A stretch of 64,000 nucleotides of DNA from NCBI RefSeq assembly GCF_902459465.1, contig NC_047068.1:5828001-5892000 (forward strand), given 5' to 3'. Below the pieces are notes generated by a model, which was not told the DNA's origin, searched no databases, and saw only the letters and a program-made list of their open reading frames with translations. Source of the DNA: Asterias rubens (Eukaryota). Below, in pieces: positions 31,762 through 59,610 of this stretch. Every line of letters begins with the position of its first letter. The stretch's first letter is position 1. The translations under genes and the position numbers were made by a program.

Positions 31762-32252
31762 AATGCTACTCAATGCTAAAGCATAGGGCCAGAATCCTAC
31801 ATAGTGCTAAAGCATAGGGCCAGAATCCTACACAGTGCTAAAGCATAGGGCCAGAAACCTACTCAATGCTAAAGCATAGGGCCAGAATCCTACACAGTGC
31901 TGAAGCATAGGGCCAGAATCCTACACAGTGCTGAAGCATAGGGCCAGAATCCTACACAGTGCTAAAGCATAGGGCCAGAATCCTACACAGTGCTAAAGCA
32001 TAGGGCCAGAATCCTACACAGTGCTAAAGCATAGGGCCAGAATCCTACACAGTGCTGAAGCATAGGGCCAGAAACCTACTCAATGCTAAAGCATAGGGCC
32101 AGAATCCTACACAGTACTTAAGCATAGGGCCAGAATCCTACACAGTGCTGAAGCATAGGGCCAGAATCCTACACAATGCTGAAGCATAGGGCCAGAATCC
32201 TACACAGTGCTGAAGCATAGGGCCAGAATCCTACACAATGCTGAAGCATAGG
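31762..32252. repeat. 31-bp minisatellite, ~15.5 copies
   Basis: Unit gct(a/g)aagcatagggccagaatcctacacagt, period 31 from 31775 to 32240. Confidence 0.97.
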
Positions 32253-33877
32253 TCAAGAATAAAGCATAAGAGGAAGAATCTTAATCAATGCAATGCAAAC
32301 TCAAGTTGACAAAATTAATTCAATTTAATATAAAACAGGTTTATTGAAAAAATCCATCGAGTTACAACACTGAGTTCCACATATTAATGTCAAATAATCG
32401 CATAAAAAACAAATTTAAAGGTTACGTTTAACCATAGAGCTATATATATTGACTAATAATAATAAACTACATTTATATAGCGCTAACTTGCTCTGTGTTT
32501 TGAAGCCACCCTGGGCACAGACATGTTCGATGTGTTGCATGACTACGAAACGATTTTAATTCACATTGGCGCGTTTTTTTTAACATTCAGCGTGTGCGCT
32601 TTCGTACGCGACTGCCCATTCGCGTCTGTGGACTACGAAAACTTTAAAAAGTCTACGTGCCTTTTAAACATGACGCAAATGACGCTCGCAGTTTGGACGC
32701 TCATCAGCAGATTGTGCGTTTACATTTGCTGCATCTTTTGGTTCGGTGACACATAGAAAATAACAAATACACTATCATGCAAATAGCCGTACAATTGGCA
32801 TACAAAATATCAAGCTTTTGTATTCGTTTGTACATAAACATTGATGCGCCCACACGGCTTCAAAACTTTATTGCCTGTATAATGGGGTGTTAGCGCTCTA
32901 GTCACATCAATATATGTATAGCTCTATGCATTTAACAGAAATCTGTAATAATAATAGAAAGTGCTTCCAACTTTGAAATTGTTTTGAACTTAAACCTTTT
33001 TCTTGTGAGAAAATTGTCTGACCAAGGTCCTATTATGGGTGAGCATTCATTGCTCACTCAAAGTATCCCAAAAACCTTTTTTGTGTGAAAATGTATTGAA
33101 CATTTTAAACAACAGTTTGTGAGAAGTAATTTGTTTGCCAAGCAAGTGTGTTTAGCAACATTTTGTTGCAATTCCATGGAAGCTAAAGATTGACAGCCAC
33201 TGTTGAACAATGGCAAAAGACCATCACTTGCTACAAACTTAAATCTCCTGCCATGTTTAATTCACATGTTCACTGCAGGGTTACAGGGCACATCGCTTGA
33301 ATGTCACATAATGCAGGTTTTTGTCACTAATTACTTTCTATTAGAGATGCATAAAAAGGTTTTGAGATGTTAATAACACAATGATACTATGAAGAGCATT
33401 GTATGGAAAAGAGATTTAAAAAGCATTCATAAATACCCCAGACAGTTTCTCTACTCCTATTGGTGGAGATCGCGTCACGTGGGGGTGTTTAAATGGTTGA
33501 TAATGACCAGTGTTTATAACTGGCTGGCTCCTGCGTATCAGACGCGCAAGATTATCACGCAGAATGCAATTCATAGCTATTAGCAACAGCGCGTAATCTA
33601 CTTCTAAGTGCGCGCACTAATCTATTTCTAAGCTTGCGCGCGTACACACAACCCACGCGCAACAGACTCTCCACAAAGGTTTCGAACAAAATATTTCAAA
33701 CCTCAAATTTTAAACGGTCAAATTTTTTAACAAAAGGGTATTTATGAATGGGAATAAAAAAGTAGCGACTCGTTCTTAACCGTCCGTTTAAACCTTGCAG
33801 GGTCGATGCTATGCGCTCAAGACCCTCGCCCGAGCCGATCACACGTAAGAAACCGTCGCTACCCTTTTATTCCCTTA

Positions 33878-37827: not shown

Positions 37828-40800
37828 ATGAAACCGAAAGCCAGATTACTTAAGCATCACCTCCTCATTTTGGGACTAGGAATAATGTTCCGATTCTTAA
37901 GAAGTTATTTCAATGAGATTGTAAAAGAAGGTGAAAACATCGGATGCATCGCCGTGTTTGGAATGTTTACTATAAACATGATCTGGAACGGTGTAATAAA
38001 GAGTCTGGCTGTGATGCTACCGACTCTACAGGAACAGTTCGGTGCTTCAACGTGGCTGGTTGGGTGGATGATAGCTTTAATAGACGGCACTTGTGACCTA
38101 GCAGGTACGTCGGCCTTGCCCTGCCGTCAAAAAAAGGGTCGGTCACACAATAATAATATTTATTTATTCGGGCAATCACATTTACAAGCACATGTACATA
38201 CATTAAACATATTTAAGAAAACAAAGTAAAACAACAGTGGGGTGCCCAGGAGAGCATAAAAGTAAAACAAAATATCGCCAAAAGGCGATGGAAAAGTTTC
38301 CGTATGGCGCCACCACTTTTTCATTCGGTATGAAATAATATAGTATCTAATATACCTCAAAGAGATATCCTTTTTGTAAAAATGAGGGGGAAAAGTGGTG
38401 GCGCCATACGGAAAGTTATCCTACAATGCTTATATGACACTGCAAAAATTTCTAAATATCTCTGGAACGCATTTGTCAATCACCCCCATTCCTTCACCGG
38501 TGTAAAAGTAAATCCGTGACCTAATTAGAAATGATTATTATCTGTTTAAGATTTTTCTTGTTCTTAAAATAACATGGCTAAAGTAGTCCCAGCCTATTTT
38601 CTAAACTATCCACCTGTGTAATAGTTAAAAAGCAGCTTTTCATAACTGAGAAGTCTCCCGAACACACAAACAATCTACTCCGCGGTAGTAGAGTAAAGAA
38701 AGACAGTTCTCTAAGAACCGCAAACCAAATATATAATATAAATAGCTCCCATCCAATGATGAGTTTTAGGCCTAAAACTTTCCTGATGACCAAACTGAAA
38801 CATCATTACGGGCTGTTCGTTTGATCTGACACATCATAATGTTTGATACCTTCCACAGCTCCGTTTGCACCAATATTAAGGGATGCGTTTGGAGTCAGAA
38901 TGGTCATCATGGTCAGCGGTGTGGCAATGTGTGCATCGCTTATCTGTTCAGCTTTTTCAACCAGTTTGTCAACAATGGCTGTCGTTCTGACAGTTATTGG
39001 AGGTGAGTTTTGTATTGAAACAAAAATCTGTCTTACAAAAATAGCACAGTAGTATATTTAGCTGGCATCGCTTCAAAGTGATGTACGGAGAACTAGTTTT
39101 AGCATGTAAAGCTTACGCTAAATTCTGTTTCGAAGGTTCAAGATATATTCAGGGGTTATCAGCAGTAATGTAGCAGTACTATGTAAGCGCCTTATACGGA
39201 GAGGATTACAGCGTGGCGTGTCGGTCATGGTCTAGCGGTTAAGACCACCGGATTTAAAAACTCCGGTGTGTCCGATCAGTAGAGTGTGGGCTCGAGTCCC
39301 AGTCGTGACACGTGTCGGATGATGACGTAGATCCGTTGGTCCCGTGTGTTGTAATGCAGGTAAAAGAACCCAGTGCACTTATTGAAAAGAGAAAATGTGG
39401 CCGGTGTTCCTGGTTTGATTGGCAGTATATTGCATTGCGCCACAACACCTTGTAAACCATTACATGTTGCTATGTAAAAGGAATAGGTCTCATACTTTAA
39501 ACGAAGTCCCACATACCTTGTATTGTTGACAAATACAGTATGTTAAAGCGCCTTGAGCGTCACCGGGTCCGGTGACGGATAAACGCACTAAATAAGAAGC
39601 CACTATTATTACTATCATTTATTGAGCCCAAATTTTGTGCCGTTAATGATAAGTCCAAGCATTTGATTAAATTTGACAGCAAAGTCTATTAAAGTCTGCA
39701 AAACGTACTTAAACATTATCTTAAACTTTATGGCAATTGTTTTATAGTTCTCTAACCAACACGGAACTCTTTTGCCCTCAGGACCCACACTTGGGATTGC
39801 CAGTATCATAACCAGGGATCTGATTGGTCGATGTTTCGACAAACACTACTCCACTGCGTTAGGCATAACTGGTGTAGGTGGCTCTTTGGGGTACATTATT
39901 TTTGCCCCTCTGACGCAATTCCTCTTGGACCTCTATGGTTGGAGAGCAACGATGATGCTACTTGGTGCACTGTTCTTCAATCTCACCGTGTGTGGCGCTC
40001 TAATGAAATCACGAGATGGAGGCTACAAGGCGGTCGACAATGGAAAACAGAGTGTTGTAGATGATCAAGATAACGGAGCAAGTCGACAAAGTCGATCATC
40101 TCATCGTACTTCCATTTGTAACTTAATCGCCATGAATCTACCTCTGGACTTATTCACATCAGTCCGTTACTGGCTTATAACATTCGCCTCTGTCATGTTT
40201 TTTTTCTGTATGTATGCGTGGTTGATCTACTTTGTACCACACGTCACTATGTCAAAGGGATTTTCGCCCACCGATGCTGCTAACTTCGTTTTAGTTTTTG
40301 GTGTTGGAAAGATGTTAGGGCATTTACTCGTTGGTCAAGCCGTTTCTGCTTGTGACAAGATTGGTCTAGATGCTAATGTGTGTATGTTGATATCACTTGG
40401 TGTGATGTCCACTTACTATTTCATTGATCCATGTTTGATAATTAGCTGGGCGATTTATGTCAGTGTATTCATTTATGGATGTTTCCATTCCTTCACGTAT
40501 ACACTGTTTGACGTCATCACAAAAGAAGCGATCGGAGCGGATCAGTTGGGAAGCGCCTTCGGATGGATTGCGTTCAAATGTGGTGCGATGAGATCTGCAT
40601 TGCTTTTCTTTCCAGGTAGGCGTTTTGTTGATGTTCATTATTTATGGCCTCAAAATAATATGGTGTTATTATCAGGTTTTTGAGCAGCATTGTTAAAGTT
40701 AAAGCGAGTCCTGTTTATCGTTTTCACTAAACCATTTTGTTTTGTCACTGTTTTGTTTTCCGTTCTAGGTTTGGTGTTTGATACACTCGGTAGCTACACC

Positions 40801-40899
40801 TTAGCATTCCTCATCATGGGTGGAATGAACTTACTGAGCTTCTTTGCACTGCTCTACCTGATGTGGTTAAAAAGACACCGTCTAGAAACTGGCATTTAA
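37828..40899 (+). CDS. Monocarboxylate transporter (SLC16/MCT-family MFS), 4 exons, ~461 aa
   Basis: Exons 37828-38104 (start could instead be ATG 37885), 38859-39002, 39782-40615 and 40769-40899, all joined by phase-1 GT-AG introns. MCT-like motifs: LPTLQEQFGASTWLVGW, FDKHYSTALGITGVGGSLG, LLDLYGWRATMMLLGALFFNLTVCGALMK, GLVFDTLGSYTLAF. Confidence 0.9.
38290..38421. mobile_element. Small MITE with ~30-bp TIR (truncated reverse copy at ~29600-29730)
   Basis: ggaaaagtttccgtatggcgccaccactttt and aaaagtggtggcgccatacggaaagttatcc. Confidence 0.75.
39213..39615 (+). mobile_element. tRNA-derived SINE, near full length (MCT intron 2)
   Basis: Box A-like tggtctagcgg, box B-like gctcgagtcc, conserved-type body (ccgttggtcccgtgtgttg...gtaaaagaacccagtgcactt), LINE-like tail aaagcgccttgagcg ending in (att)n-like repeats. 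Confidence 0.8.
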
Positions 40900-41153
40900 A
40901 TAGCTTGAACTTCCAATGCTTAAACCCTCCCAAATGGTCTGCAGCCAGTAGATCAAAAACATATTTTAATTATCAACTTTTTTTCTTTTTTTTGGCAAAA
41001 ACATGTGAAAACCTTTAAATTTCTATCCGCTGACAGGCCCGATCGACATGGTCTGTGCAAACAAATACTATAGTTTTACAGTGTAGAAACATACGAAACA
41101 AATGTTAAAAATTAAAACAAGTAATTTGTTTTCGAAACAGCATTGGTGTACCT

Positions 41154-42134
41154 CTTTTACTTAGAGAATATTCAGATATAACTCGGCCGAATTTTCAAGA
41201 ACATCCCGTTAAACACAATGTCACGCACCATATTACCACCACGGGCCCACCAGTGAATGCACGTCCCCGACGATTGGCCTCAGACAAGTTACATATAGCC
41301 AAAGCAGAATTTAATCACATGCTTGACTTGGGAATAATCCGTCCCTCAAAAAGCCCATGGTCTTCACCTTTGCACATGGTACCTAAGAAAAATGGCGATT
41401 GGAGACCTTGCGGTGACTATCGTGCTTTATATAATGCCACAACACCTGATAGGTACCCGATTCCCCACATTCACGATTTTGCAGCAACCTTACATGACAA
41501 GAAGATTTTCAGTAAAGTTGACCTAGTCAAGGCTTACCACCAGATACCTGTTGAACCCGAAGATATACCAAAAACGGCAATAACTACACCTTTCGGCCTT
41601 TTTGAATATATAAGAATGCCATTCGGGTTAAGAAATGCTGCGCAAACATTTCAAAGATTTATCGATCAAGTATTACACGGCTCGGATTTCACCTATGCTT
41701 ATATTGACGATTTGTTGATTGCGAGTGAAAATGAGCAACAACATGAATATCATCTTAGACTACTTTTTGACCGCTTACGAGAATACGGGGTGGTAATCAA
41801 CCCTAGTAAATGCGAATTCAAAGTAACTAGTCTTGATTTCTTAGGCCACCATATTGACTGTCATGGTATCAAACCTTTGGAAAATAAGGTGAACTTAATC
41901 CAAGACTTTCCAGTACCAAATTCACTCCGCAAATTGAGAGAATTTCTGGGATTGATCAATTTTTATCGGCGTTTCATCCCACATTGCGCTGATATTTTGC
42001 AACCCTTGACTGACATGCTGTCTTGCAAGTCAAAAGACAAAGCGATTTCACTGACCGAATGTGAATTGGCATCTTTCCAAAGAGCAAAATCTACTCTAGC
42101 TGAAGCTACTATGTTAGTACACCCAGCTGTAGAC
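41154..42134 (+). mobile_element. Ty3/gypsy LTR-retrotransposon pol fragment: reverse transcriptase and connection
   Basis: Open frame with [75 protein letters not shown]. Homology stops at MLVHPAVD. No gag, protease or LTR seen upstream. Confidence 0.95.
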
Positions 42135-42375
42135 ACCAATACATGTGTACACTGCAGATTGAGGACATACTTTTCATACTAATTTACTATCCAATGGAGG
42201 ACATTGCCAAAAGTCGAATGGTACCTATCGATGTGAGGACATAACACATGAATCCTTTTTCTTGCGGTTCACTAATGTGAATGTGTATACTGGCCTTATA
42301 GGAAATGTTTTGGGGGTGGTACACGATTTTCTTGTTCTTTGGGGGGGGGGGGGGGGGGGGGGGCAGGCCAAAGGT

Positions 42376-43003
42376 CTAGACTAATCATTTGGCTGTGCCT
42401 ACAGAGTCACTCTAGGTTATGACTGTACTTTGGTGGTGCATGAGACCTTAAATTTGTTAAAGTGTCATCGTGTTTCTACAAAAGTCCTTAATGTTTTTCA
42501 AGTTCTGGTCTGCAATGCCACAGGACAGGACGATTCAATGTCACGTTTTCCTGGAATCTTCTTCAGCAAAATGAATCTCTGCAAGCCCTCGGTTACGTCT
42601 TTCTTTTCCTGGGCAGTCCAGGGGCGTCGCTTGAATTGTCGACGCTCGACTTGTCGAGCTTTTGGAGCTGGATCCGTTTGGGTTGGTGGCCTTCCTACAA
42701 CACACAGGAAAGAAGAGGTCAGTTAGTAAACATAATCAAATGGGGCGTATACATAACCTAAATATGTTCATTTTACCGGTGTCACATTAACTCCTCGAGT
42801 AAATCAATAAGCAATTTAGCACAAAAGAATGCGATAAAGGTACCTGCAGAAAATGCCTGACAAGAAGCAGCCATCTTGTTTCATCCTACCGTACAAAATG
42901 AGTTGCCCAGATGGGCTAATCTAGACTAATCACTTGGCTGTGCCTACAGAGTGACTCTAGGTTATGACTGTACTTTGATGGTGCATGACACCTTAAATTT
43001 GTT
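42376..43003. repeat. ~83-bp direct repeat pair bracketing the Myb-like exon
   Basis: tctagactaatca(t/c)ttggctgtgcctacagagt(c/g)actctaggttatgactgtacttt... at ~42376-42458 and ~42920-43003. Confidence 0.85.
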
Positions 43004-43209
43004 GACAGCAAACAGAGTCTGGCATGTTATCGCATTTTGGTCTAGGGGGGGGGGGGGTAAACAGGGAATAGGACCAGCATATGCAAGAGACCTACAAGAG
43101 ATATAGGCATTAAAAAATATTAAAAACTTACTGGCATCAACACTGTCCTCCAAAGCTGGGTCACACGAGTCACCTGAATCACTGCTGTCCTCATCGCTGG
43201 TGAAGCCTT
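42457..43209 (-). pseudogene. Two spliced 3' exons (acidic exon plus Myb/SANT-like terminal exon) of a truncated, element-type gene
   Basis: Exon 43209-43132 (EGFTSDEDSSDSGDSCD) and exon 42694-42457 (KRRPWTAQEKKDVTEGLQRFILLKKIPGKRDIE...ALQTRT), joined by a phase-1 GT-AG intron. Restoring one G at 42499 gives WKNIKDFCRN. I recall this motif from the C-termini of tyrosine-recombinase (Crypton-like) proteins of aquatic animals; this is unverified. Confidence 0.6.
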
Positions 43210-43650
43210 CTGCAATAAAAAGAAATTAAACTTCTACAGTTAGCTTTGATTGGTTTCTGGCACACAAATAACAATGTGGGCCAATCCGTTTGGTTGGGTG
43301 TGTGGGGTTTGGGGTGTACAGTGATTGATGTTCAAAGGGGGGGGGGGGAGGGGGGGTTAGGTGATGACGGCCACAGGCCGAGTTATCAGGCCCCAAAAAC
43401 AAAGAGCAATTGTTACATTTAGGTATGCTTGCTTTTTGGCGTACACACCTAAACATGTTGGCCAATCCATTGGGGGGGGGGGTGGAGAGGGGGGGGGGAG
43501 GTTGTACAGTGAATGAATGTTATTTGGGGGGGGGGGTACCACAGTTTGAATTAAATTGGAAAGACAAGTTAAAAATGGGTTTGTTTACCTCCAGGAACAT
43601 GCAACTCCTCCAAAGATTTGCCATGTTGCGAAACCATTTTTCATCTATAG

Positions 43651-44322
43651 GATGCATGGGAATTGGAAGATTCAGAAAAGCGTCTACAGAGAGCAGGACT
43701 TAGTCGCCTGGAGATACTAGAGAAGTCACATTTGGATGAATGCATCTGCAAGGGTGAATGGCTTGCATGTGCTGAAAATGTATTACTTAACAATGATTTG
43801 TGCAATAAGAGTTTTTCTAAAGCAGTAACAACTCTCCTGGACGAGGGTAGGGGAAAATATCGTAACATCATGATTACTGGGCCAGCAAATTGTGGGAAAA
43901 CATTTCTTTTAAATCCATTAAATAAAATATACAATGTATTTACCAACCCAGCAACAACAACATTTGCTTGGGTTGGTGCTGAGCAATCTGAAATCATATT
44001 CCTGAATGACTTTCGGTGGACCTCGCAAATAATACCTTGGCAAGACTTGCTATTATTACTAGAAGGTCAACTCGTCCACCTCCCCGCCCCAAAATCGCAT
44101 TTTGCACAAGATTTAATTTTAAATAAGGACACCCCTATTTTTTGCACTCGCAAAAATCCAATAGTTCTTGTCAAGGGTGGCTCTGTGGATGAAAGGGAAA
44201 CAGAAATGATGGCCGTGTGCTGGAAAATATTGCCATTTCACCACCAGATTCCTGAAGATGAACAGAAGTGTGTACCACCTTGTACGCGATGCTTTGCATC
44301 ACTAATCTTAAATAAGGAATAG
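43651..44322 (+). CDS. Superfamily-3 helicase, parvovirus NS1 / CRESS-Rep-like C-terminal half (possibly inactive)
   Basis: Walker A GPANCGKT (43879-43902), Walker B-like IIFLND (43993-44010), motif-C-like TPIFCT and a C-terminal CxxC (PCTRCF). The frame opens at 43651, after an in-frame TAG that also forms an acceptor-like tttttcatctatag. No HUH nuclease domain is visible upstream. Confidence 0.8.
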   Translation, partial: DAWELEDSEKRLQRAGLSRLEILEKSHLDECICKGEWLACAENVLLNNDLCNKSFSKAVTTLLDEGRGKYRNIMITGPANCGKTFLLNPLNKIYNVFTNPATTTFAWVGAEQSEIIFLNDFRWTSQIIPWQDLLLLLEGQLVHLPAPKSHFAQDLILNKDTPIFCTRKNPIVLVKGGSVDERETEMMAVCWKILPFHHQIPEDEQKCVPPCTRCFASLILNKE

Positions 44323-44455
44323 TTTGAAACAGTCTCATATAGGTCTATATAAAGGATTTTGATAGAAAAATTTGATGCCCGTTCTGCATTTGCCCCCCCC
44401 CCCCAATCCATGATCACAGCCTAAACTGTTCTAAGTGCCCATTTTCAAAGTACGT

Positions 44456-44824
44456 TCAAGGAACACGTTGCCTTGGATCGGTCGAGTTGGTCTTTGAAAA
44501 GCGTTTGTTATAAAATGTATATAGGTAGAAAGATGCTGTAAAAGTAGAATACAATGATCCACACAAACATGCCTCGAAATTGTACGGTTTTCCGTTTTAC
44601 ACAGTCGGCCATGTATGGGAGTCAAATTTGTTGACTCCCATAAATGGCCGACCGTGTTAGTTCGCACAGTAAAAGGAAAACCACGCTATTTCGAGGCAAA
44701 CTTGTGTGGATCATTGTATTCTACTTTTTACACATCTTTCCAACCATATGCATTTTATAACAAACGGTTAAAAACGCTTTTTTATATACCAACTCGTCCG
44801 ATCCAAGGCAACGTGTTCCTTTAA
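44456..44824. mobile_element. MITE family B copy, just downstream of the SF3 helicase stop
   Basis: aggaacacgttgccttggatcggtcgagttgg ... ccaactcgtccgatccaaggcaacgtgttcct|TTAA. Confidence 0.85.
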
Positions 44825-45659
44825 AACCAACGTGTGAAATGTTCCCAAAGACTTGGTGCTTTTTAGAGAGTACAGCACAATGAAGTGGTTGATATTATAC
44901 AATTTGGCACATAATTGTCAGAAATACACAAAAGTTCTCACTATCTGTTTATTATTATTATTATTATTATTATTTATTTGGCAATTCACATACAAATACA
45001 AAAATATAAATACAATAGAAATACATTACGAACTACCTGGGAAGTTAACTGTAATAAAGTTTCACAAGTATGCAGACTGATTTTCACCGTTTCATTTTTG
45101 TACCATTCCAAAGTAGAAATAATAGTCTGGTTCCTTTTTATGGTGAGTGATTTTTTATCATCAATGTCATTGGGTATACTGGGAACCAGACCAAGATAGC
45201 CACAGTGTAATATAGGTCTATAGTTTTGTATTATATCAACATGTTAACAGACAATTAATGATAGGATTTAGGACTTTTATACAAGTTATTGTCATGGTGG
45301 TCTTAAATTAAAAAGGGTTTTAACTTTATGAATGAGTACCAGTGTGAAATTGTCACTTTTTTATTTAATGTTAACTATGTACGCTGAACAATAGGTGTGC
45401 TTTGTCAATGTAAATCCATCACTATAAATACCTTCAGAACTACAGGGCAAGTTGATTTTTAGTCAGTGTCACAAGTATGCAGACTTGTTTGATAGACTCT
45501 GTATCCCCTGCACCCCCCCCCCCCCCATTACAATGTTGTGGCTCCCGCGCAGTCTCACTTTTGCGCACTCGGCCCTCTACAACATTGAAGGGGGGGGGGT
45601 ATCAGCTTTTGCATAATGTCGTAGAAAAACTTCAGGTCGCATCCACCCACCTACCCACA

Positions 45660-48600
45660 ATACGTTGTGTGGTATTCGGTGGGTAAAAGCCGGAACTATC
45701 ATTTTATGTTTTACTACGACGCTTAGGGAATCAACATAGATTGTACACCCATACGTTGTGCGTTATGCGGTGGGTAAAATCCGGAACGATGGCAGTTTTC
45801 TGTTTTACTACGGTGCTTAGGGTATCAACACCACATGGTAGTAGTTTCAGAGTAGATCGTAGGCATATACATACACACTGCGCCATTTGTGTTTAATATT
45901 TCAATATTGGCAACAACAACAAAAGCATCAAATGTAATTCACGCATTATACAATCTACAGAATTGAGACACAATGCTAAAGATACTCAGTTAATTGTTAC
46001 TAACATGTTTACTAACTGGGACAGCCAGTGTTGATGTTCATTTTTTTATCAAGTTTTTGCACAATATTATTCAGAACTCAATTTGTACAGGTTTAACATT
46101 CATCCGTTTAATAAGCCAGGGCCTAATCTAATATTATTATAGACCCTCGTCCATTGTTTGGAAGTCGAGGTCTCCATGCCCTGCGTCCATAGCTTTGATA
46201 GTACATGGTATGGGGGGGGGGGGGGGGTGCAAGAATATATGATTTGAGGGTTAATTTTTACCCCAACAAATGTTTGCAATAATTGTATTACATCAAGAAG
46301 AATGTGGCTAAAGAACTGAAGCTTGTAAATACTTATTGAACTATTTTGAGCGCTTTCAGTTCGGCTTCGCATCTTAATGTGGTTAGGGTGGGCTGTCGTA
46401 GCAACGTCCGGCAAGTCGTCTGTCACATTAAATGACTATTTTCAATTAATGTCAAGTTCAATTCATTCAATCATTTCAAATTTACAGAAATATTACATCA
46501 CAGGAGAACAACCACAATTAAGTTGAGGTTATAAAAACAATTTTTTTTCCACTGTCACCATTATGGTCATAATTGTTTGCAATATTATGAAGTTTTACAT
46601 TTTATTCGGCAGCTTTTTTTCTATGTGAGTTATAACAGCCTATTTATTATATAAAATATTACGTATAGTGGGGTCCAATCAACATGTATGTCTACAAGTT
46701 GTGTATAAATGCGAAGGTCGGTAAACCAGGTCGGAACTCTCATTAATTTCTGCAGTGTAGTGAAGTAACGTCATGTGTAAATAAATTCAGTAGATTTTTG
46801 GTGGCAATTGAAACAATCCCTGTTTTATGTTATCTACACAATTTTTTTTCGGGGATGTTTTCCAGTAAATCAAGCTCTGGTTAGAACTGAAGAAGTTTAT
46901 ACAATTTGAGTTAAAACCTAAATTCGCGCGTGCAGTCGTCGTCTACTAACTTCAAAATAGGTTCTCGTGAAAAAATAAATTGAGGGTAAAATTTGTAACG
47001 ATCAATTACAGATTTTCTTGTCAGTAAAACAACGATACTAACGGAATTGACTCACGAGTTATTCAGTGTTCAGCAGATTATACTCGATGTAATAAGTGCC
47101 TTAAACTACCGGGTAAAATTCCGAACGATCTCAGTTTCATTCTGCTGTTTTTCTGCACGACGCTTGTCACACACACACCATACGTTGTGTGGTATTCGGT
47201 GGGTAAAAGCCGGAACTATCATTTTATGTTTTACTACGACGCTTAGGAAATCCACGAAGATTGTACACCCATACGTTGTGCGTTATGCGGTGGGTAAAAT
47301 CCGGAACGATGGCAGTTTTCTGCTTTACTACGATGCTTAGGATATCAACACGTCATGGTTGTAGAGTAGATCGTATAGGCCTGTACATACACTGCGCCAT
47401 TCGCGTTGTTGTTGTAAATTATTATTTACATAGATTTTGACAATTTATTTTTAGTTTGAACACACCTATTCTGTAGATGTCAAAGCTGAATTTGTACAGG
47501 TTTAACATTCATCCGTTTAATAAGCCAGGGCCTAATCTAATATCATATTATAGACTAGACCCTCGTCCATTGTTTGGAAGTCGAGGTCTCCATGCCCCGC
47601 GTCCATAGCTTTGATAGTACATGGTATGGGGGGGGGGGTTCCAAGAAAATATGATTTGAGGGTTAATTATCACAACAAAAAATGTTACCAGTAATTGTAT
47701 TATATCAAGAAGATTATTTGAACTTTTCGAGGAATTTATATATTGTTCAAAATTATCGGCCCTGGTGGTATTCAAACTGCCACCGAGGGCGCTGTTGAAA
47801 AACGAATTCGCTCATTTTGAGGGTTTCCTTCCAGCCAGTTTTAACAAGTATTAATGTGGCTAAAGAACTGAAGCTTGTAATACTTATTAAACTATTAACA
47901 AGTCATGGTTGTAGAGTAAATCGTATAGGCCTGTACAAACACTGCGCCATTCGCGTTGTTGTTGTAAATTATTATTTACATAGATTTTGACAATTTATTT
48001 TTAGTTTGAACACACCTATTCTGTAGATGTCAAAGCTGAATTTGTACAGGTTTAACATTCATCCGTTTAATAACCCATACGTTGTGCGTTATGCGGTGGG
48101 TAAAATCCGGAACGATGGCAGTTTTCTGTTTTACTACGGTGCTTAGAGTGTCAACACCGCATGGTAGTAGTTTTTAGAGTAGATCGTAGGCCTATACATA
48201 CACCGCGCCATTTGTGGATAAAGGTCGGGACAACCAGTGTTGTTGTAAATTATTATTTACATAGATTTTGACAATTTATTTTTAGTTTGAACACACCTAT
48301 TCTGTAGATGTCAAAGCTGAATTTGTACAGGTTTAACATTCATCCGTTTAATAACCCATACGTTGTGCGTTATGCGGTGGGTAAAATCCGGAACGATGGC
48401 AGTTTTCTGTTTTACTACGGTGCTTAGAGTGTCAACACCGCATGGTAGTAGTTTTTAGAGTTCGTAGGCCTATACATACACCGCGCCATTTGTGGATAAA
48501 GGTCGGGACAACCAGTGTTGTTGTAAATTATTATTTACATAGATTTTGACAATTTATTTTTAGTTTTAACACACCTATTCTGTAGATGTCAAAGCTGAAT

Positions 48601-48900
48601 TTGTACAGGTTTAACATTCATCCGTTTAATAACCCATACGTTGTGCGTTATGCGGTGGGTAAAATCCGGAACGATGGCAGTTTTCTGTTTTACTACGGTG
48701 CTTAGAGTGTCAACACCGCATGGTAGTAGTTTTTAGAGTTCGTAGGCCTATACATACACCGCGCCATTTGTGGATAAAGGTCGGGACAACCAGTGTTGTT
48801 GTAAATTATTATTTACAAAGATTTTGTTTAGTTATTTTTTTAAAAGTTTTTATACAATTAATTCAGTAGATTTAAAAACTAAATTAATTTGTACAGGTTT
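45660..48900 (+). repeat. Array of ~1.5-kb composite modules, ending in a ~280-bp triple tandem (47957-48830)
   Basis: Blocks recur visibly: the cggtgggtaaaakccggaac subunits at 45681, 45772, 47111, 47201, 47292, 48098, 48379 and 48657, and aatttgtacaggtttaacattcatccgt near 46080, 47490, 48040, 48320, 48600 and 48890. Confidence 0.9.
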
Positions 48901-49250
48901 AACATTCATCCGTCTTATTTACAATTATATACACTTACCCTATTTCTGAGTCTTGGCGGAATTAAGCTTCATTTGGCGGCGCTGGCCAGCTTTGACTTCA
49001 TTCAAATTATTTAAGATCTCCCAAATACAATTACTAGCTACTATTTATATTTAATTATTAAGAGATATTACTTTATACATTAATGGTGTCCTCCAGCTGA
49101 AAGGTTGCTGTATAGGAGTAGTGTACTACCAATTCAGTTTCCAGTCAGCCTTTGGACAACCACAATAAATGAACCTTAATAAATACTACGACTACATGTG
49201 TATAGGTTAGAGAGATACAACCTTTCTGTACCAAAAGCTGGAGAAGAGTG

Positions 49251-49908
49251 AGTTATTAGGCGTTGTGTTGCTCTAATACCTGGATGAGATAGGTTATGTA
49301 TCGAATCAAAAATGTTACGTCTAAATTCAGGAGTGACGTATGGACGTGGATGTCCGGTAGATGTGTCACAAATTATGGTATTGTGTGAAGTGAGAATAGG
49401 CACCTCTTCAAATTGAAGACTAGACGATTCACGTAGCTTACATAGCTCTGGGTCTGTCTTTTGCTGAAGGGCGATTTGTTCAAAGTTCACATCACTACCG
49501 GGAAGGCTAGGATGGGTAAACTAAACTTATGTCATATCGGGATAGAGCATCTGCTACAAGGTTTTCTTTACCTTTAATGTAACGGATGTCAGTACTGAAC
49601 TGAGAAATATAGTCTAAATGACGTACTTCTCTTGGCGAGTATATATCGGGCCTTGCATTAAAAGCATATATTATAAGTGGCTTATGGTCAGTCAGAATAT
49701 AGAAGTTACGACCTTCCAAAGCATACTTAAAATGACGTATGGCTAAGTATACAGCCAGCAATTCACGACCAAAAGTACTGTATCTAGTCTCTGCTGGTTG
49801 TAAACGTTTAGAAAAAAATGAAATTGGTCTCATAACGTCGTTGTCACATTGCTGAAGTACACCGCCAACTGCAAGGTTGGATGCATCTACCATTAGACAG
49901 AGAGGTAG
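49251..49908 (-). mobile_element. Ty3/gypsy pol fragment: RNase H and start of integrase Zn-binding region, frameshifted
   Basis: LPLCLMVDASNLAVGGVLQQ, FFSKRLQPAETRYSTFGRELLAVY, TDHKPL, GKENLVADALSR. After a frameshift near 49500: RPYVTPEFRRNIFDSIHNLSHPGIRATQRLIT, then truncated. Confidence 0.92.
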
Positions 49909-49989
49909 GTGGGGGGGGGGGGGGGGTGTGTGTGTGTGTAAGATCACTGTTGCACTGATTAACAAGCGTCTTACGGGAAAAAAAGACTA

Positions 49990-52900
49990 CAAAATGAAAT
50001 CGTTCCAGGTTTTACCCAGTAATTTAAAGCACACATTACGATGAGTGCAATCTGCTGAATATTGAATCAATCGCGTGTCAATTCCGTTTAGCGTCGTTGC
50101 TTTACGGACAAGAAAATCTGTTTCATATTTTACCCTCAAATTATTTACTTTATGAGAACCTTCATAAAGTATATAGGCCTACGACGACTGTACGCACGTA
50201 CCAGTTTAGGTTTTTAATTTAAATTGTATAAATTTCTTCAGTTCTGACTAGAGCTTGGTTTACTGGAAAACAACCGAGGAAATTAATGGTGTCTAAAACA
50301 TAAAACATGGAATATTTCAATTGCCACCCAAAATTTACTAATATATTTATAATGCACAACACTGCAATGAGAGTTCCGACCTGCGTTTACCGACCGTCGC
50401 ATTTATACACACTTCATGTATGCATACATGTTGATTCGAACCCTACTATAACGTCCGTCATATTTTATTTAAAGCCTATTAAAACAAGTTTGCTTAATTC
50501 AACAATTAAAAAACATAATACTGCAAATACAAAAGACCATGACAAACTTGCATTTAATTATCTGATTACAGTGGAAAAATAATTGTTTTAGTAACCTCAA
50601 CTTATTATAAATGTTGTGTTTGTTCTCCTGTAATGTTACATTTTGTCAATTTTAAATAATTGAAATAAGTTAAACTTTAATTTGGCATAATAATTGACAG
50701 CCGATACTTGACGGACGTTGCTATGACAGCCCACCCGTGACCACATTAAGATGCGAAGCCGAACTCAAATCGCTCAAAATAGTTCAATAAGTATTTCCAA
50801 GCTTTATTATGTCCCGATTATGTCTTCAGTTCTTCAACCACATTACTACTTGTGGAAGGAAGCCCTCAAAACGAACGAAATCGTTTTTCAAAACAGCGCC
50901 CTCCGGTGGCAGCTTGAATACCGCCAAGGCCGATAAATTTGACCAAACTTTATATAATTTCCATGAAAAGTTCCAATAATCTTCTTGATATAATACGTTT
51001 ATTGCAAACATTATTTGTAAAAATTTACCTCATCATATTTTCTTGGACCCCCCACCCAACCCATGTACGTTCAATGCTATGAACGCGGGTTTCGACCTGC
51101 AACTTCCAACCAATGGACGAGGGTCTATAATAATATTCGATTATGCCCTGGCTTATTAAACGGATGAATGTTAAACCTGTACAAATAGAGTTATTAAATC
51201 TACTGGATTAATTGTTTTAAACAAACTTTAGAAAAAAAACCTCAACACCATCTTTGTAAATAGTAATTTTCAAACACTGGCCGTCCCGACCTTTATCCAC
51301 GAATGGCGCAGTGTATGTACAGGCCTACGATCTACTACTATGTGGTGTTGATACCCTAAGCACCGTAGTAAAACAGAAAACTGCCATCGTTCCGGATTTT
51401 ACCCACCGCATAACGCACAACGTATGGGTGTACAATCTTCGTGGATTCCCTAAGCGTCGTAGTAAAACACAAAATGATAGTTCCGGCTTTTACCCCCACC
51501 GAATACCACACAACGTGACAAGCGTCGTACAGAAAAACAGTGTTTCAATTCCTCTAACATGGTTTGTTTAACTGATAAGAATAAAACTGTGAGTGATAAT
51601 TTCGAATTTTAACAACAAACTGATTTACTTCATGGGAACCTTTTTGAAATAATTATATTCATTTTTGTTTTTACCCATGTACACCGATGTGTGTTATGCC
51701 AGAGTTCTGTGAAAGAAATCACATACACATTACTCGGGTGGGATTCTTTGAGTTTGTTTTTGAGTTACTACGACTGCACGCACGTACAGGCCAACCCATT
51801 TCACGGTTCGAACCTGAGCTTGATTTGCTGGAGAATATATCAACAATTAATGACATTCAGGCCAAGAAAATAATGCTGTCGAGAACATGAGTGAGTAACA
51901 TGAATTGTTTCAATCGAAACAACATATTTTACATGGTTTGACTGCAAAAATAACTTCCACGGTGCAAAGATTTGACTTTGAAACATAAGTTCCGACCTGC
52001 AACTTCCAACCATGCCGGGTCGTGAGTCGATTCAGAAATAATGCATGCCCAATCAGCTTGTGTGAGTTCCGACCTGCGTTCTTTATATAATCTATACACG
52101 ACATGTAAGTGACATTTTTTTTACATAATGTACGATCAATGCTATGTCAACACGACGCAGGTTTTTACCTGCATTTTCAAACAATGGACGATGTTTACTT
52201 TACTTCACTTAACTTTCTTTTCCAAAAAAAAAAATAATAATAATAATATTATGTGAAAATAACAGAAGAGATGGTTTAATCAAGTAATAGTTTTTACCAT
52301 AGCAGTAATCAACTTGGATGTGGAGGGGGTCTCAAGCTTGTTAAGTAGTTGCCCCATTGTTACAATTATTTTAACAAAGATTGGAAAATAAGAACAGAAT
52401 AAACAACTCACAAACAAAAACGAGGGGTCTTGTGTCATAAGAAAAACCCCATAACAAAAAAACAATATCATAATACTGATATAGATTAATGAAATAACCC
52501 CATGAGAACAATATCAGTTATTCAAGAAATCTTTTTGTAAACAGTTTTTTTAATAATTATTTTCGTCTAAAGTGTGATGGACTAGAGATGGGGTGTCAAC
52601 AGAGCTCCATAGCTTGGGCCTCGCATATTTCACACTTATTTTAGAAAGTGTAGTGCGAGTATAAGATTGATGAAATTCATGACACTGCCTTGTGAAGTGA
52701 TGATGAATTTTCTTTTTTTTTTTTTAAACATAGAACTGATTGAATTGGGCGAGGTTTTTTAAAAAGTTGATGCATGAGAGAGCAAAGCTGGAGAGAATAA
52801 ATTTCATTAACTTTTAAAAACAAGGCAATTATAAAAAGGGGATTATAAGTAACTGTTCACGAGCATTAAATTTTTTTTAAATAAATAAGTCGAACTCTTG

Positions 52901-53690
52901 TCAGGATTCTATTAAAGTATTACCCCAAGAAAGTGCATCGTAAAAATAAGGGTTGATGTACATAACCAAATTCATTGATACATACTGGGGAAAACAAATC
53001 AAATTAATTTTAAGCTTAGAAATAATACAAATGTTTATAGAAACGGCTGTGGATGCATTGATATGTTTATAGGCTAGGCTAGCCCACCTTGTTGAGCTGT
53101 TAAATGGCTCCGCTTTTAACATCGGTCTCATCACTGTCAGCTTTTAACATCGGTCTCATCACTGTCAGCTTTTAACATCGGTCTCATCACTGTCAGCTTT
53201 AAACATCGGTCTCATCACTGTCAGCTTTTAACATCGGTCTCATCACTGTCAGCTTTTAACATCGGTCTCATCACTGTCACCATTACAGTGATGAGACCGA
53301 TGTTAAAAGCGGAGCCATTAATAGCTCAACAAGGTGGGCTAAGGCTAGGCTGCCCTGAATGACGGTTTAACCTTGAAATCCTGAATTATTTTAAAACATT
53401 TGTTGTCATAAACCGAACAAAATCGTTTGAAAGATTATTTAAACAAACTGCCATCGTTCCGGCTTTTACCCACCAAATATAACGAACAACGTACGGTGTG
53501 TACAATTTGTAGATCCCTAAAGCACCGTAGTAAAACAGAAAACTGCTATCGTTCCGGATTTTACCCACCGAATACCGCACAATGTATGGGGTGTACAATC
53601 TCCATGTAGATTCCCTAAGCCTCGTAGTAAAACAGAAATGATAGTTCCGGCTTTTACCCACCGAATACCGCACAGTACAACGTATGGCCG
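49990..53690 (-). repeat. Reverse-complement copies of the same composite module
   Basis: 49990-51190 mirrors 46080-47130, 51300-51545 mirrors the subunit block, degenerate pieces run to ~52200, and three more subunits lie at 53440-53690. Confidence 0.85.
53080..53341. mobile_element. Short foldback MITE with 6 x 28-bp tandem expansion of the left arm
   Basis: TIR tagcccaccttgttgagct; 9-bp TSD aggctaggc (53071-53079 and 53342-53350); unit gcttttaacatcggtctcatcactgtca at 53112-53279. Confidence 0.9.
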
Positions 53691-53833
53691 TGTGTGTACG
53701 ATCCCCCCCCCCCCGATACAGAAAACCAGAATGCTTTATGTCTGTGCGTGTGGCGTGTCCGTGGGGAATCCCCCAGCGCACGCAATGAAATTGAACCGCC
53801 ATCATTTTAAATCAGAATTCCTACTAATAAAAG

Positions 53834-53843: not shown

Positions 53844-54020
53844 TACAGGATCTGTTTATAGACACAGTTGGTGTGATCTGTCAATTCAAAACTCAAGTGA
53901 TCCAGACTCAATTGATCCTGGTAAATCAAGATACCTTGACATTTTCCCCAGGCTTAACGTACACCTGGACAGTTCCTGCGTGAGCGATACTCTACAACTA
54001 TAAAGTAAGCAGGCTACACC

Positions 54021-57000
54021 ATGGCGTGTAGTGCTATGCCTAACCTGGATCCATTTGTGTTTGACCCGCAGAGTGATGAGCCCACCGCTCTCAGTTCCAA
54101 ATGGGATAAATGGCTGAAACGTTTTGAAAGAGCTATGGTCGGTTATAACATTAATGGAGCAAAAAGAAAGCGGGCATTGCTATTGCATTACGGAGGTGAG
54201 CAACTTGAGACTGTTTTTGATACACTTTCTGACACAGGAGATGAGAATGATTATGAGAAGGCAATAGAAGCTTTGACGGCTCACTTCGTTCCAAACCCCC
54301 TCCATGAAACTATCATCTTCTTCAGGAGTTTGAAACAGAACCCGGAGGAAAACGTTGATCAGTTTTGTACTCGTCTCCGAAATGCAGCAGAAAAGTGTGA
54401 GTTTGGTGATCTGAATCGCCAACTGATCATACAATTCAGTATAGGATGCTCTTCAATAGAACTTCGGCGTGAAGCACTTGACAATATTCTTGTCGAGAAG
54501 GCGTGCAATCTACCACAGCTGTTAGACTTCACACAGTCCCTTGAATTGTCAAACAAACAAGCCGATGCCGTTCAAAACCAAACCGACATTCAGCAAAACC
54601 CTGACAAACTTTCTCAGAGTCAGACTCAACACATCGGTGACAAACCTACCCGTCATGAGAGCAAAGACCAAGGAGTTCTCTATGATGAGAGCAGACATAA
54701 GCCATTGTACGACAGTACCAAGAATAGACCTACACAGCAAAACGGAAATAGTGCAACTCCGGTAAGCTAAACCATTAACTTGTATGCCCCGCCGGTGTCC
54801 GATGCAATTGTATCCGCCATGCAGAACTGTCCGCTCCGGACACTTTTGCACATGCAATCGTGTCCGGGGCTATGCAAAAATCGTCCGGCGGACATGTACA
54901 TGACGGTACATGTATGTGCGTGCATAAGCGAGCGTGCATGCACTAAACATACGTATATCACGTAATGATTGCACCGAATACCCAACGGCCGAACATTTCC
55001 CGTGTCATTCATGACATTATACACTTAGCTTGAAAAACAAACAAATGGCCAACGTGTTCCGTCGATCAAGGGCCTTTAATTTGCTGCAAGGACGGTCTTG
55101 CAGGGGGAGGACACAACTGCATATGCAAATGTGTCCGGGCGGACACAATTGCATTATGCAGCGGCGTCCGGGCGGACACGGTTGCATACGCAATAATGTC
55201 TTCCGGATAGTATTGCAAATAGGACATCATTGGAGTTCGGGGATTACAGTGTTGTCCAGAAACGCCGGGCCGGTGATTTCGCCAGCTACTTGGTCCTTTT
55301 GATTTCGCCCCCCAGTTTTTGCCGCCTCCAATTTAATTTTCCCCAGTTAAAATTACTGTCAACGACTGGAATTTTTCAAAAATGAAAACGCCGTATTAGA
55401 CACAGACATAGCACGAACCATTCTGGCATCCTGTCATCGCACCTGGCGTCACTGCAACACCTTCTCCATTGTACATTGTTTTTATTTTAAACATTATAGC
55501 CAAGGACTGCAAATAGAGTATTTGCTGCTCCGACGGGGCAACCCCCACCCAACTGTAGCAATTGTATACATGGTTGACAAAAGAATTAGTAACAGTTTAC
55601 AAGGGTAAATGGTAAAAATAACATTTGAAATTGGTCAAGGTTTAGTGTTGTACACAATCAGTCAGGTGGTATAGGAATATGCTACAAAATAAAATTTACT
55701 CAGTTTATTTTAACGTAAAATACGGTAATTATCCTTAATAATAATTATAATAATAATACTAATAATAATAATCATAATTTATTCATTTGTATTGTGCCCA
55801 ATCCCATCAAATAATACCCAATCAACCCACAAACGGCTCATCAGAGAGAAAGATTTCCAACTCTGAACAAGAAAAAGATGAAAGTTCAAAGAAAACCAAG
55901 GCTAGTGATAAAACAAGCAGAGCGGGCTCCCTGGGTGCAGTAAGTGATTTTACATAAGTGTATGCGAGTTTCCAAAGTAAAGCTTTATTATAAAGCCCTA
56001 TAGCTAGAGCGCTACGTTCATCCGGTAGTCGCAGGTTCGAGTCCCTCTCTCCTATCAATTTGTTCAATCAAAATTAATTTTCAAATTTACCCAGTCTTCA
56101 TTTCTTATCTGATAACAGGTTTCAGTGTCAACCTCCAAACAATTGTTGCATAAAAACGGCCAATCAAAGAAAGCAAAGTTCAATCCTGAACTGGAAAAAG
56201 AGATATTGCAGAGTTACGAGGAATTTAAAGACAGAAGCTACATGGCTACGGTACGTAATTTTTTTTTTAGTTGCTTATAACGAAAGTTATATGTGAACTG
56301 CATAACAATTATTGCACATCAGTCATACAGCAACAATTTTCCAATGAAATCTGATAAATTTCTTGCCTAACGCTAACAAACACGGGAGTTTTTTACAGAA
56401 ACGAAACCGTTAATGCTACTCTCACATAGGGAGAACGCTACTGAATGTGCTTACGAACGGAAATATTTAACAATCGCTCAAACTTCGCAACATTCGCCAC
56501 AAATTCACCACGCTCACAAGTCATTCTCCACCTCCTTACGAAGATCGGTCACTTTATGCTGCTCTCACACGGCGAATATGCTAGCGAATATGCTATCGGA
56601 AGGACATATTTGACAATCGCTCAAACTTCGCAGCATTCGCCGTGTCTTCGTAAGCGTTGGTAACAAATTCGGAACGCACAAAAATTATTCCCCACCTCCT
56701 AACGAAGATCGCTCAATTTACAATCCGGTTTGTTAATTTCAGCAAATGTTGCGAAGATGGTCATTCGGCTTGATTTTCGTTAGCATTGGTAACGTTGGTA
56801 AAGCGTGCATAAGCGTTTGAAACGTTCGTGAAGGCATTGACAAGCGTTGGTAAGCATTTGTAAACATTCGTAAGATATTGGTAAGGAGTGGGCCAACCGA
56901 AGACGATCGAGGGGTGAGACCGATATGAAAATATTCACTATCCAACCGCCATTTTGGACGAATTCTACGCGCAGTTCAAATATTCATGTTCGCAAGAACA

Positions 57001-59102
57001 TTCGCCACTCTGTGAGAGGGGCAATACGAAGCGCCTCCGTACACTCAGCGAATGTTGTGAAGACGGTAATTCGCCATCGATTTGCGTAAGCATTTGGTAA
57101 GCCATTGGTGGTACTGTTGGTAAAGCGTGCGTATTATGCGTAAGATATTGGGAAGGAGAGGTTTAAGGACGACAGAGAACATTCACTATCAAATCGCAAC
57201 TTTTGGGCGAATTCATCGCGAATTTCAAACATTCGTATTCGCAAGATATTCGCCCAAGTGTGAGAGTATAGCTTAAAGGAACACGTTGCCTTGGATCGGT
57301 TGAGTTGGTCTTTGAAAAGCATTTCAACCGTTTGTCATAAAATGCATATGATTAGATAGACACGTTAAAAGTAGTATATAATGATCCCCACCAGTATCAC
57401 TCGAAATTGCGTGGTTTTCCTTTGACCTCGTCGACTAACACGGTCGGCCGTTTAAACTTGACTCCCATAAGTGGCCGACCGTGTTAGTTCGTATAGGAAA
57501 ACCACGCAATTTTGAGGCAATATTGTGTGGATCATTGTATTCTACTTTTAAAACGTCTTACTAACCATATGCATTTTCTAACTAAACGGTTACAAACGCT
57601 TCTTAAAGACCAACTCGACCGACCCAAAGTAACGTGTTCCTTTAAGAACGGATACATAATACCAATAAGCTCTTACTTGATTTCTCATTTCAATAATTTT
57701 CAGGCAATTAATATCAGGAGAAACAGCGCAAATTTGGCTGATTTTACACCGTTACAACTGTCAGATAAAATTCGTCGTTTAGTGAATAATAAAAAAGGTA
57801 AGATAATACTAAAAAGTAAAAGGAGAAATTTATATAAATTTCAAGGGCCAAACGGGGGAAAAATTGAAAAAGAATAATGGAATAAACAAAAATAACAGTT
57901 CTTAATAATATGGGGTTATTCGTTTAATAAAATATGCATCCTTAGTAATTTTAAAAGTGTTCTATTGTGTTCTTTTTTACAGATCAGAAGAAGACTTCAA
58001 GGTATTTGCGATACATTTTATTACATGATTCATTAAAAAAGTTAAGTGTAATACCAACAACCATCAGCCATACAGACAGTGAAATGATTAATGTAAAAAT
58101 TATAAAGAAAACACCAATTATTCTCCGAAACCTGAAATGTTGCACCGAGGGGATTCGGAGAGGTTATTTGGAATGACGGAAAACAATTATAAAACAATTA
58201 ATTTTTTAATTGTTCGCTGAATTAAACAAAATGAATGAACTATAATAATTGATTTAACATACGTTATGTTTGTATTCATCTCCCTTTCCCTCAAGAACTC
58301 GACGTGCTAGCCGCAAGATATCCGATGATGAGTAAGTATAAGAAAAAGGGACTAAAAGGGTTTTGACGAGTTCTTAAACTGCCTTAAAAACCGGCAGGGT
58401 CGTGGCCGTGCGATAGGCCCTTGCCTTCGGCTCGGGCCTTTGTCGCACTGCCACTATCCTGCAAGGTTTTTAACGGCAGTTTAAGAACGAGTCACTACTC
58501 TATTATTCCCATTCATAATATGCCCTTTTGGTTACAAGGCGTTATAGTAAGAAACTCTGTAAAACTGATCTGTTTTCCTTGAGCTCTGTACGTGTGTTGC
58601 ATTTTTATGACTGACAGTTTTTGGATATGCATTCGTGCGCGTAGTACATGCATCTAATGTAACCGGTTATAAACAGCTCCAGCTGGTAATAATCAATCGT
58701 TTTAACATCACACGTGACGCGCTCTCCAGCAATAGGAAAGGCAAAACTATTTGAGGTATTTAAGAATGGTAAGTTATAATCCTTTGTTTGTTATTCATAA
58801 ATACCCGGGCAGTTTATCCATTCCAATTGGTCGAGAGGGTATCACGTGGGGTTGTTTATCGCACGACCAGGTCCCTGCCACATAATTTATTTTGGATCCG
58901 AAAATGATGCGGGTGTTTGAGGGGGCTGGGTCTACACAGGTGCGCCGAGTTAATATGGAAAGCCGGGAAACAATATATGAAACAGTTTCCAACTTTGATT
59001 CACAGTATTCACTGAAATCAAAATAACAATCTAAATTGATTTAACTTATTTTCATTTCTCGTTTTTAAGGCTCGAGTTTATCCGCGAGCAATGCAATGAT
59101 GA
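54021..59102 (+). CDS. Candidate spliced gene whose first exon is a Ty3/gypsy Gag capsid domain (3' end not found in window)
   Basis: Exon 54021-54761 (WDKWLKRFE, RKRALLLHYGG, FRSLKQNPEENVDQFCTRLRNAAEKCEFG) ends at CCG|GTAAGC. Phase-compatible GT-AG exons follow at 56119-56250, 57983-58001, 58296-58331 and 59070-59102, with a possible extra exon at 55847-55939. Unspliced, the ORF stops at 54770. The Gag identity is high confidence; the splicing is predicted. Confidence 0.7.
54787..55273. repeat. GC-rich imperfect foldback built from gtccgg/ccggac short repeats
   Basis: Repeated tgtccggg...ggaca motifs in opposite orientation on the two sides; begins directly after the gag exon. Confidence 0.45.
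56411..57272. mobile_element. MITE-like element with internal repeats
   Basis: Imperfect TIR gctactctcaca / tgtgagagtatagc; internal duplicated block acaatcgctcaaacttcgcarcattcgcc. Confidence 0.55.
57273..57645. mobile_element. MITE family B copy
   Basis: TTAA at 57273 and 57642-57645; family B termini. Confidence 0.85.
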
Positions 59103-59610
59103 GTAAGTGTTATCTAAGTAATGTATTATCTATTATTAGTTAGTTTAAATTTTCGGTAATATTTTGCACAAAACAACGGCTCAAAAATTGTTATGATTGC
59201 AAGTTAATTATAGATTTGGTCATAGTGAAGATATATATTTTACTGTGTGCATCAACTTTGTAAATAAGTCTCAGAGGTTTTGAATCGAGAAAACACGTCA
59301 AACCTTTTCTGAAAAAAAAATGTATTTATGACAAACATGAACCACAAAAATACCCATTACATTTTCGTTCAAAATTTAATCCATTAATTCAAACTTTTCA
59401 TTTTACTTACTGTAGGCCCAAAAACTCTGAACTATTCTCATAGCAAGGGTAAAAAGATGGCAGCCAAAGGATGAACAAAACAGAGCGCCACCAAGCGACC
59501 CGTCCCTCGGAGGTAATTTTCAAAGGGTTGCAGTATGAACAAAGCTGGGAAACCGTTCGTACCAATTACACTTGCAATGTAAATGTGTTAAATGGAATGT
59601 ATTTGAAAAT

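Follow-up and report, generated by a model that had tools for sequence, protein, structure and literature searches.

The locus and its repeats

The window analysed here is a 64-kb stretch of the Asterias rubens genome (C7:5828001–5892000), and the whole genome of 418 Mb was searched for copies of its repeats. A nest of repeats containing a split Ty3/gypsy element sits just 3′ of an MFS transporter gene (Table 1), whose MFS_1 domain match falls on the penultimate coding exon, the one preceding the exon listed in Table 1. No tRNA genes were found in the 64-kb window. Tandem arrays are present at 59608–61696 and 31760–32260, with periods of ∼68 and ∼31 bp respectively. Other gypsy-like pieces, with no Pfam match, lie near the split locus at 54009–54770; by motif resemblance, they are presumably the gag-like frame of another LTR family.

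Table 1. Features at and around the split gypsy element (positions within the window).
Feature	Position	Strand	Basis and remarks
Last coding exon, host MFS transporter gene	40769..40899	+	Splice sites and frame; intact; 240 bp 5′ of the repeat nest
Ty3/gypsy RT fragment	41139..42133	+	RVT_1 and copy comparison; 5′-truncated at 41139
Left breakpoint	42133..42135	.	Gypsy RT end joined to first base of Crypton-like element; X15 contig
Left 1.5 kb of Crypton-like transposon (∼5.7 kb)	42134..43636	.	Without recombinase frame and right end
Segment Y	43637..45655	+	Parvovirus-NS1-like helicase fragment and MITE
Repeat Z, inner block	45656..48914	+	Inverted relative to the outer block
Gypsy 3′ LTR remnant	48915..49252	-	Copy comparison; both ends clipped
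Gypsy RNase H and start of integrase	49248..49909	-	RT_RNaseH and copy comparison
Right breakpoint	49909..49939	.	G run, then (GT)7
Repeat Z, outer block	49926..53733	+	Comparison with native loci

A gypsy pol gene on two strands

As a preliminary description made from the letters alone had proposed, the gypsy pol gene is split between the strands: the reverse transcriptase (RT) frame is on the plus strand at 41109–42182 (Pfam RVT_1, E 3.8e-34) and the RNase H frame on the minus strand at 49986–49507 (RT_RNaseH, E 6.7e-25), and similarity to gypsy stops at 42134 and resumes at 49910 on the minus strand. The copy is dead on several counts, being truncated at its 5′ end, left with a clipped LTR and lacking ∼1.36 kb of integrase and LTR sequence, deleted at 49248–49252 across a 5-base overlap. 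No 5′ LTR, gag or protease belonging to this copy was found in the window or within 10 kb of it.

Searching the genome with the RT half yielded 11 matches, five of them to three close copies (on C8, C18 and C23) and the remainder to the window itself and to a family at 68–69%. The copies on C18 and C23, which are the only two others with both halves, are 96–98% identical to the window. In both, the points matching 42134 and 49910 overlap by two bases and the sequence is continuous through them, so that the two halves do join without a gap over a 2-bp AC, as had been claimed; the C8 copy ends too early to inform on this junction. The substitutions private to the window relative to the native copies amount to 4/544, 3/236, 4/650 and 3/338 in the RT, RNase H and LTR pieces, and such similar divergence across the pieces fits a single gypsy copy of a single age. 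By these comparisons, the two halves of pol belong to one gypsy family and are of similar age, which is the opposite of what the preliminary description had named as grounds for rejecting its reading, namely halves from different families. This repeat nest, with its further gypsy-like pieces nearby, does offer room for two unrelated gypsy fragments to face each other by chance. Such a coincidence is barely credible given the shared native copies, the 2-base overlap and the similar private divergence, and the abutting halves in the C18 and C23 copies refute it.

The CsRn1 lineage of Ty3/gypsy, in the features given in the available part of PMC3630058, resembles the native copies on C8, C18 and C23 in the CHCC gag motif, the GPY motif and the order RT, RNase H, integrase; this likeness is one of motifs, not of RT phylogeny, and the window copy itself differs in being a dead fragment. 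The lineage is further marked by a primer site complementary to tRNA-Trp and by a 4-bp target duplication; the window copy keeps no intact ends. A primer site was located after the LTR of the C8 copy. We take it to match tRNA-Trp.

Repeat Z as a second marker

The modules of repeat Z inside the segment are oriented opposite to those at 49991–53697, just as the preliminary description had noted, and paralogous loci now provide the ancestral order. Repeat Z is also found on C1, C6 and C13. Its arrays, made of related units of 1.5–3.7 kb, lie at 12.115–12.129 Mb on C1, at 15.305–15.315 Mb on C13 and at 8.29 Mb on C6, besides 45656–53733 in the window. The C1 locus can be read directly as the reverse complement of 47873–45658 followed by 191 bp, (GT)8 and 49926–53733, and the C13 locus as the reverse complement of 47196–45658 followed by the same series. 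Thus, the inner and outer blocks are contiguous in both of the loci that have both; on C6, and at a second locus on C13, only one block type is present. Compared with native Z, whose (GT)8 microsatellite has no G run, the right side of the window locus is missing the 191 bp, and its microsatellite is longer by 15 G. The 191-bp piece, the 5′ part of the gypsy element, the rest of its integrase and the rest of the Crypton-like element were all absent from the window and from 10 kb on either side, which argues for loss of these pieces rather than local shuffling.

On two independent markers, gypsy and Z, the 4.3 kb of 45656–49909 appears to be inverted. The inversion of ∼7.8 kb that was originally proposed is supported, with the qualification that only these 4.3 kb are doubly marked: nothing within 42134–45655 itself marks its orientation, and the full 7.8 kb relies on the target-site argument given below.

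Breakpoints and read evidence

The junction sequences can be read base by base. With the Crypton-like element as the register, the left part of gypsy ends at 42133 and the element starts at 42134; the right part of gypsy starts at 49909, and the minus strand ahead of it reads (AC)7, a C run and A. Neither gypsy nor the Crypton-like element lost a base at the exchange. The segment had been given as 42135–49910; the inversion stands, whereas those limits are asymmetric, and the shared AC places it at 42134–49909, give or take one base. The run of 16 G followed by (GT)n that had been noted beside the right break is present, as G16 at 49911–49926 and (GT)7 at 49926–49939. Both breaks fall to the base on features of which the window has few, namely a single Crypton terminus and two (AC/GT) tracts of six or more units in 64 kb, which argues against chance placement. 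The (GT)7 is target-type sequence, with 15 extra G between it and the break.

Read contigs from six of 24 runs (X1, X2, X3, X15, X19 and X24) were compared, with 31 bases as the bar for bridging a junction. One contig of X15, of 1,396 bases, covers 40850–42162 with two differences and includes the host flank, the RT fragment and the end of the Crypton-like element. It passes the left junction by 28 bases, which is below the 31-base bar and near the maximum reach into a branching repeat. X15 comes from another sample (S14) and another study (P7) than X1, the best DNA run, and its contig makes a misjoin unlikely, so that the second of the refutations foreseen in the preliminary description, an assembly error, also failed. 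An assembly misjoin between repeats would be easiest to imagine at breaks such as these, both of which touch repeats, the right one being a homopolymer and microsatellite masked in the reads, and no X1 contig crosses the left junction among the matches listed. We nevertheless regard it as very improbable, in view of the independent X15 contig and of two junctions that are reciprocal to the base. The masked interval in the read comparison is 49894–49945, and a high-copy MITE swamped the comparison over 40000–51000.

Contigs of X1 and X19 extend 30 bases across the 41138/9 junction. In contigs of X1 and X3, RT reads into RNase H at 42134, with letters unlike the window at 42053 and 42056; this fits paralogues and provides no tie to this locus. 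No uninverted allele of the locus was seen in the compared read contigs; X3 has no cover over the host flank, and a gap between contigs is no proof of absence. Over 41139–41662, one X3 contig (record 24) agrees with the window at 41178 and 41277 and with X15 at 41430 and 41484, and continues upstream into native gypsy sequence; either an untruncated allele or a collapsed contig could account for it. By computation, the X15 contig has its far end at 40767, at the AG common to the acceptor of the last intron and the end of the upstream exon. X15 could derive from RNA, in which case the RT fragment would belong to the 3′ UTR of the MFS gene or to read-through, a single contig being no proof of a single transcript.

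The Crypton-like element and its target

The genome search found 17 exact matches to the left end of the element, including the window, and 16 to its right end. The first three bases, CAC, are invariant in all 16 other left ends and the preceding base varies; at the right ends, the final A is invariant (16/16) and the next three bases vary. Invariant terminal bases beside variable flanks indicate a cut register of N^CAC without target duplication. The AC that had been described as plain microhomology is therefore a real overlap but at the same time the cut register of the Crypton-like element. The two ends, CAC.. and ..GTA, are not inverted repeats and there is an ACAC-like core at both junctions, much as in the available descriptions of Cryptons, which give no terminal inverted repeats, a short direct repeat or core at both ends and no target duplication (PMC3212892, PMC13465315).

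Among the 16 other left flanks, 10 consist of AC/CA to at least 50%, against 0.16% of the window background; judged by these flanks, the family prefers (AC)n microsatellites as its target. Microsatellite targeting has been reported for some families of the Repbase group CryptonV (PMC8869645, as far as the available text goes), which are likewise tyrosine-recombinase DNA transposons of animals without terminal inverted repeats; the likeness is one of description and not of recombinase sequence. A target matrix was built from 15 left flanks (with the window excluded and one member of an identical pair of unplaced flanks dropped) and 16 right flanks, which are few and partly related. By this matrix, the native (AC)8 of repeat Z scores 19.3 and ranks in the top 0.002% of sites in the window, against −12.3 for the native gypsy site, a median value that 42% of window sites equal or exceed. 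The left arm in the window, at −9.8, lies below all 15 leave-one-out scores (the lowest being −1.6), and this off-target arm suggests that the element was not simply inserted into gypsy. The copy on C21 has as its insertion site the (AC)n of a sequence homologous (85% identical) to the lost 191-bp piece, and its orientation is the one that a first insertion of the element at Z would predict.

The copy on C22 keeps a frame of 629 codons, for which the Pfam score for Phage_integrase (26 bits) is just under the cut-off of 27.1; seven of 48 homologues match. Residues R128, K174, R249, H275 and Y284, which we take to be the catalytic positions of a tyrosine recombinase, are conserved across the 48 homologues. 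A structure model (pLDDT 88) matches XerH, XerA and Cre (E 3e-5), and all of its top fold matches are tyrosine recombinases or topoisomerase IB; a fold from the single sequence was uninformative (pLDDT 32), and sequence searches of PDB and NCBIfam gave nothing useful. The element is thus predicted to encode a tyrosine recombinase. No RT-like frame was recognized by eye among frames of at least 110 amino acids in three copies, nor by a Pfam scan of the main frame; absence of RT separates Cryptons from DIRS and Ngaro elements. Close protein matches of the transposon are from A. rubens (96–99%) and A. amurensis (95%), and are annotated as ‘uncharacterized’. Four copies (L055, L057, L061 and L062, on C16, C8, C15 and C22) form a subfamily whose members are ∼99% alike and which has one 629-codon recombinase frame; this microsatellite-targeting subfamily has recently been mobile and is apparently undescribed.

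How the inversion may have arisen

The most likely reading of the sequence is that 42134–49909 is an inversion that split both the gypsy pol gene and a second repeat, Z. The inversion is real, young and small; the repeats in which it lies are dead, and its left break falls exactly on the terminus of the Crypton-like element. We give a little better than an even chance to the further proposal that a recombinase supplied by another copy made the exchange. The left end of the element would first have been placed in the (GT)n of repeat Z, the preferred target of the family. Lacking a right end as its partner, this orphan end would have been cut at its usual register and recombined with an A^C site in gypsy pol, which lies close by and is read the opposite way. 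The exchange would flip everything in between and join RT to the Crypton end and RNase H to the former microsatellite flank. The G run would have arisen inside the microsatellite, before or after the inversion. We infer this order, microsatellite first and gypsy swap later, from the (GT)7 being an ideal target and the gypsy site not. In favour of the recombinase stand the break on its register, the conservative nature of the exchange, the target-type sequence at the right break and the precedent in Chlamydomonas described below.

If the Crypton-plus-Y block (42134–45655), which has no orientation marker of its own, had instead been inserted straight into gypsy, only the 4.3 kb of 45656–49909 would need to be inverted, and the Z site at the junction with Y does score as a target of the Crypton family (5.7, in the top 0.26%). 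We consider this improbable: gypsy would be the only non-target arm among the 16 left flanks scored, and the presence of (GT)7 beside the right break would be accidental.

Several observations speak against the recombinase route. The gypsy site is off the target matrix. Tyrosine recombination is conservative, so that the 15 extra G and the missing 191 bp on the right side need separate events. There are at least four other deletion-type junctions at the locus (41138/9, 43636/7, 48914/5 and 49248–52), a sign of ordinary repair activity. The main rival is the same 7.8-kb inversion made by host repair, through template switching or end joining. G runs stall replication forks; a G run would already have formed in the microsatellite beside the Crypton end, a fork stalled or broken there would have been rejoined over the AC, and the break would coincide with the Crypton tip for no other reason than the adjacency of the G run. 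The non-consensus partner site in gypsy would then be unremarkable, G16 (one of only five G/C runs of at least 15 in the window) does abut the right break, a short C run stands beside the terminus in the flank of the C18 copy, and the other junctions here have overlaps of 1–5 bases. Repair joins, however, usually trim ends, and here no gypsy or Crypton base was lost and the join landed on the recombinase register; moreover, a longer G run at 42341–42363, 200 bp inside the Crypton-like element, was not used as a break. On balance, host repair seems to us possible but rather unlikely.

Whichever way it was made, the inversion has little evident consequence: it is confined to dead repeats, no gene is broken, and the coding exons of the MFS gene are intact.

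Relation to known inversion systems

In Chlamydomonas reinhardtii, the available text of PMC9977147 describes inversions between one CryptonF-1_cRei element and a separate target site, and proposes the activity of the recombinase as their cause. The sea-star locus is alike in having a Crypton end exactly at one breakpoint and target-type sequence at the element-free one. It differs in that each Chlamydomonas case described there had a consensus site, whereas the gypsy partner is off-consensus; the sea star is also an animal, its orphan left end has no recombinase of its own, and the event is reconstructed, not observed. By analogy, the sea-star inversion would work like those of Chlamydomonas while missing the consensus at the partner site, and is not a member of that set. 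Crypton-linked inversions are thus already known, although the direct observation that we found, within the same part of PMC9977147, comes from one alga.

Reports of a Crypton inversion in an animal were not found in the literature searched, which took in neither Repbase Reports nor most subscription papers and is weak evidence of absence. The BuT5 element of Drosophila has reportedly generated inversions and resembles the present case in having small mobile elements at the breakpoints. BuT5 and similar inversion-generating elements are of the DDE type, whereas the sea-star locus has a single element end with no second copy. As a small rearrangement of a known kind, the sea-star inversion is a tidy but minor case, which offers a base-level view of how an animal genome may acquire a small inversion at the end of a tyrosine-recombinase transposon. 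Crypton mobility is still mostly a model, and a family with defined ends, a measurable target, copies that are ∼99% alike and a long open recombinase frame makes the chemistry of circle formation and inversion testable.

Segment Y, a passenger

The helicase fragment of segment Y (43651–44322) scores 0.96–0.99 in the atlas and falls below the Pfam cut-off. The only other copy of Y found, at C15:13103483–13105302 (L083 and L084), is 93% and 98% identical over two pieces, and a Crypton left end begins there at the base where the Y of the window stops. The window has the Crypton left end and then Y, whereas C15 has Y and then the left end, so that the two orders are circular permutations of each other. 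A circle of the Crypton end plus its flank, reopened at the terminus, fits this permutation, and the Z site at the Y/Z junction scores, as noted, as a Crypton target. An equally good fit is a templated insertion that ended on seven bases shared by the Crypton start and Z, each of the two requiring one small change. Transduction of flanking Y with the Crypton left end is thus possible. In a tree of the Crypton arm, which left out the C21 copy as too short, the window copy falls in a clade of five to six with the C15 copy (bootstrap 96), not as its sister; on this tree, the C15 copy is neither proved nor excluded as the donor.

Taken together with the inversion, the boldest version would have an animal Crypton recombinase, acting in trans, reintegrate a circle of the left end and 2 kb of flank from another chromosome and then invert 7.8 kb at a non-consensus site. 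We hold this two-step history to be doubtful. Were it true, one-ended reactions would make microsatellite-targeting elements flank-transducing and inversion-making agents in animal genomes.

The MITE of segment Y (44455–44824) is palindromic, ∼370 bp long and of very high copy number, with 4,244 first-look candidates; it is also found elsewhere in the window, at 15338–15700, 29362–29535 and 57273–57649. Near the Y copy on C15, L084 (13.107–13.111 Mb) contains several frames, which presumably resemble a YqaJ-type nuclease, a SWIM finger and a Harbinger-type transposase.
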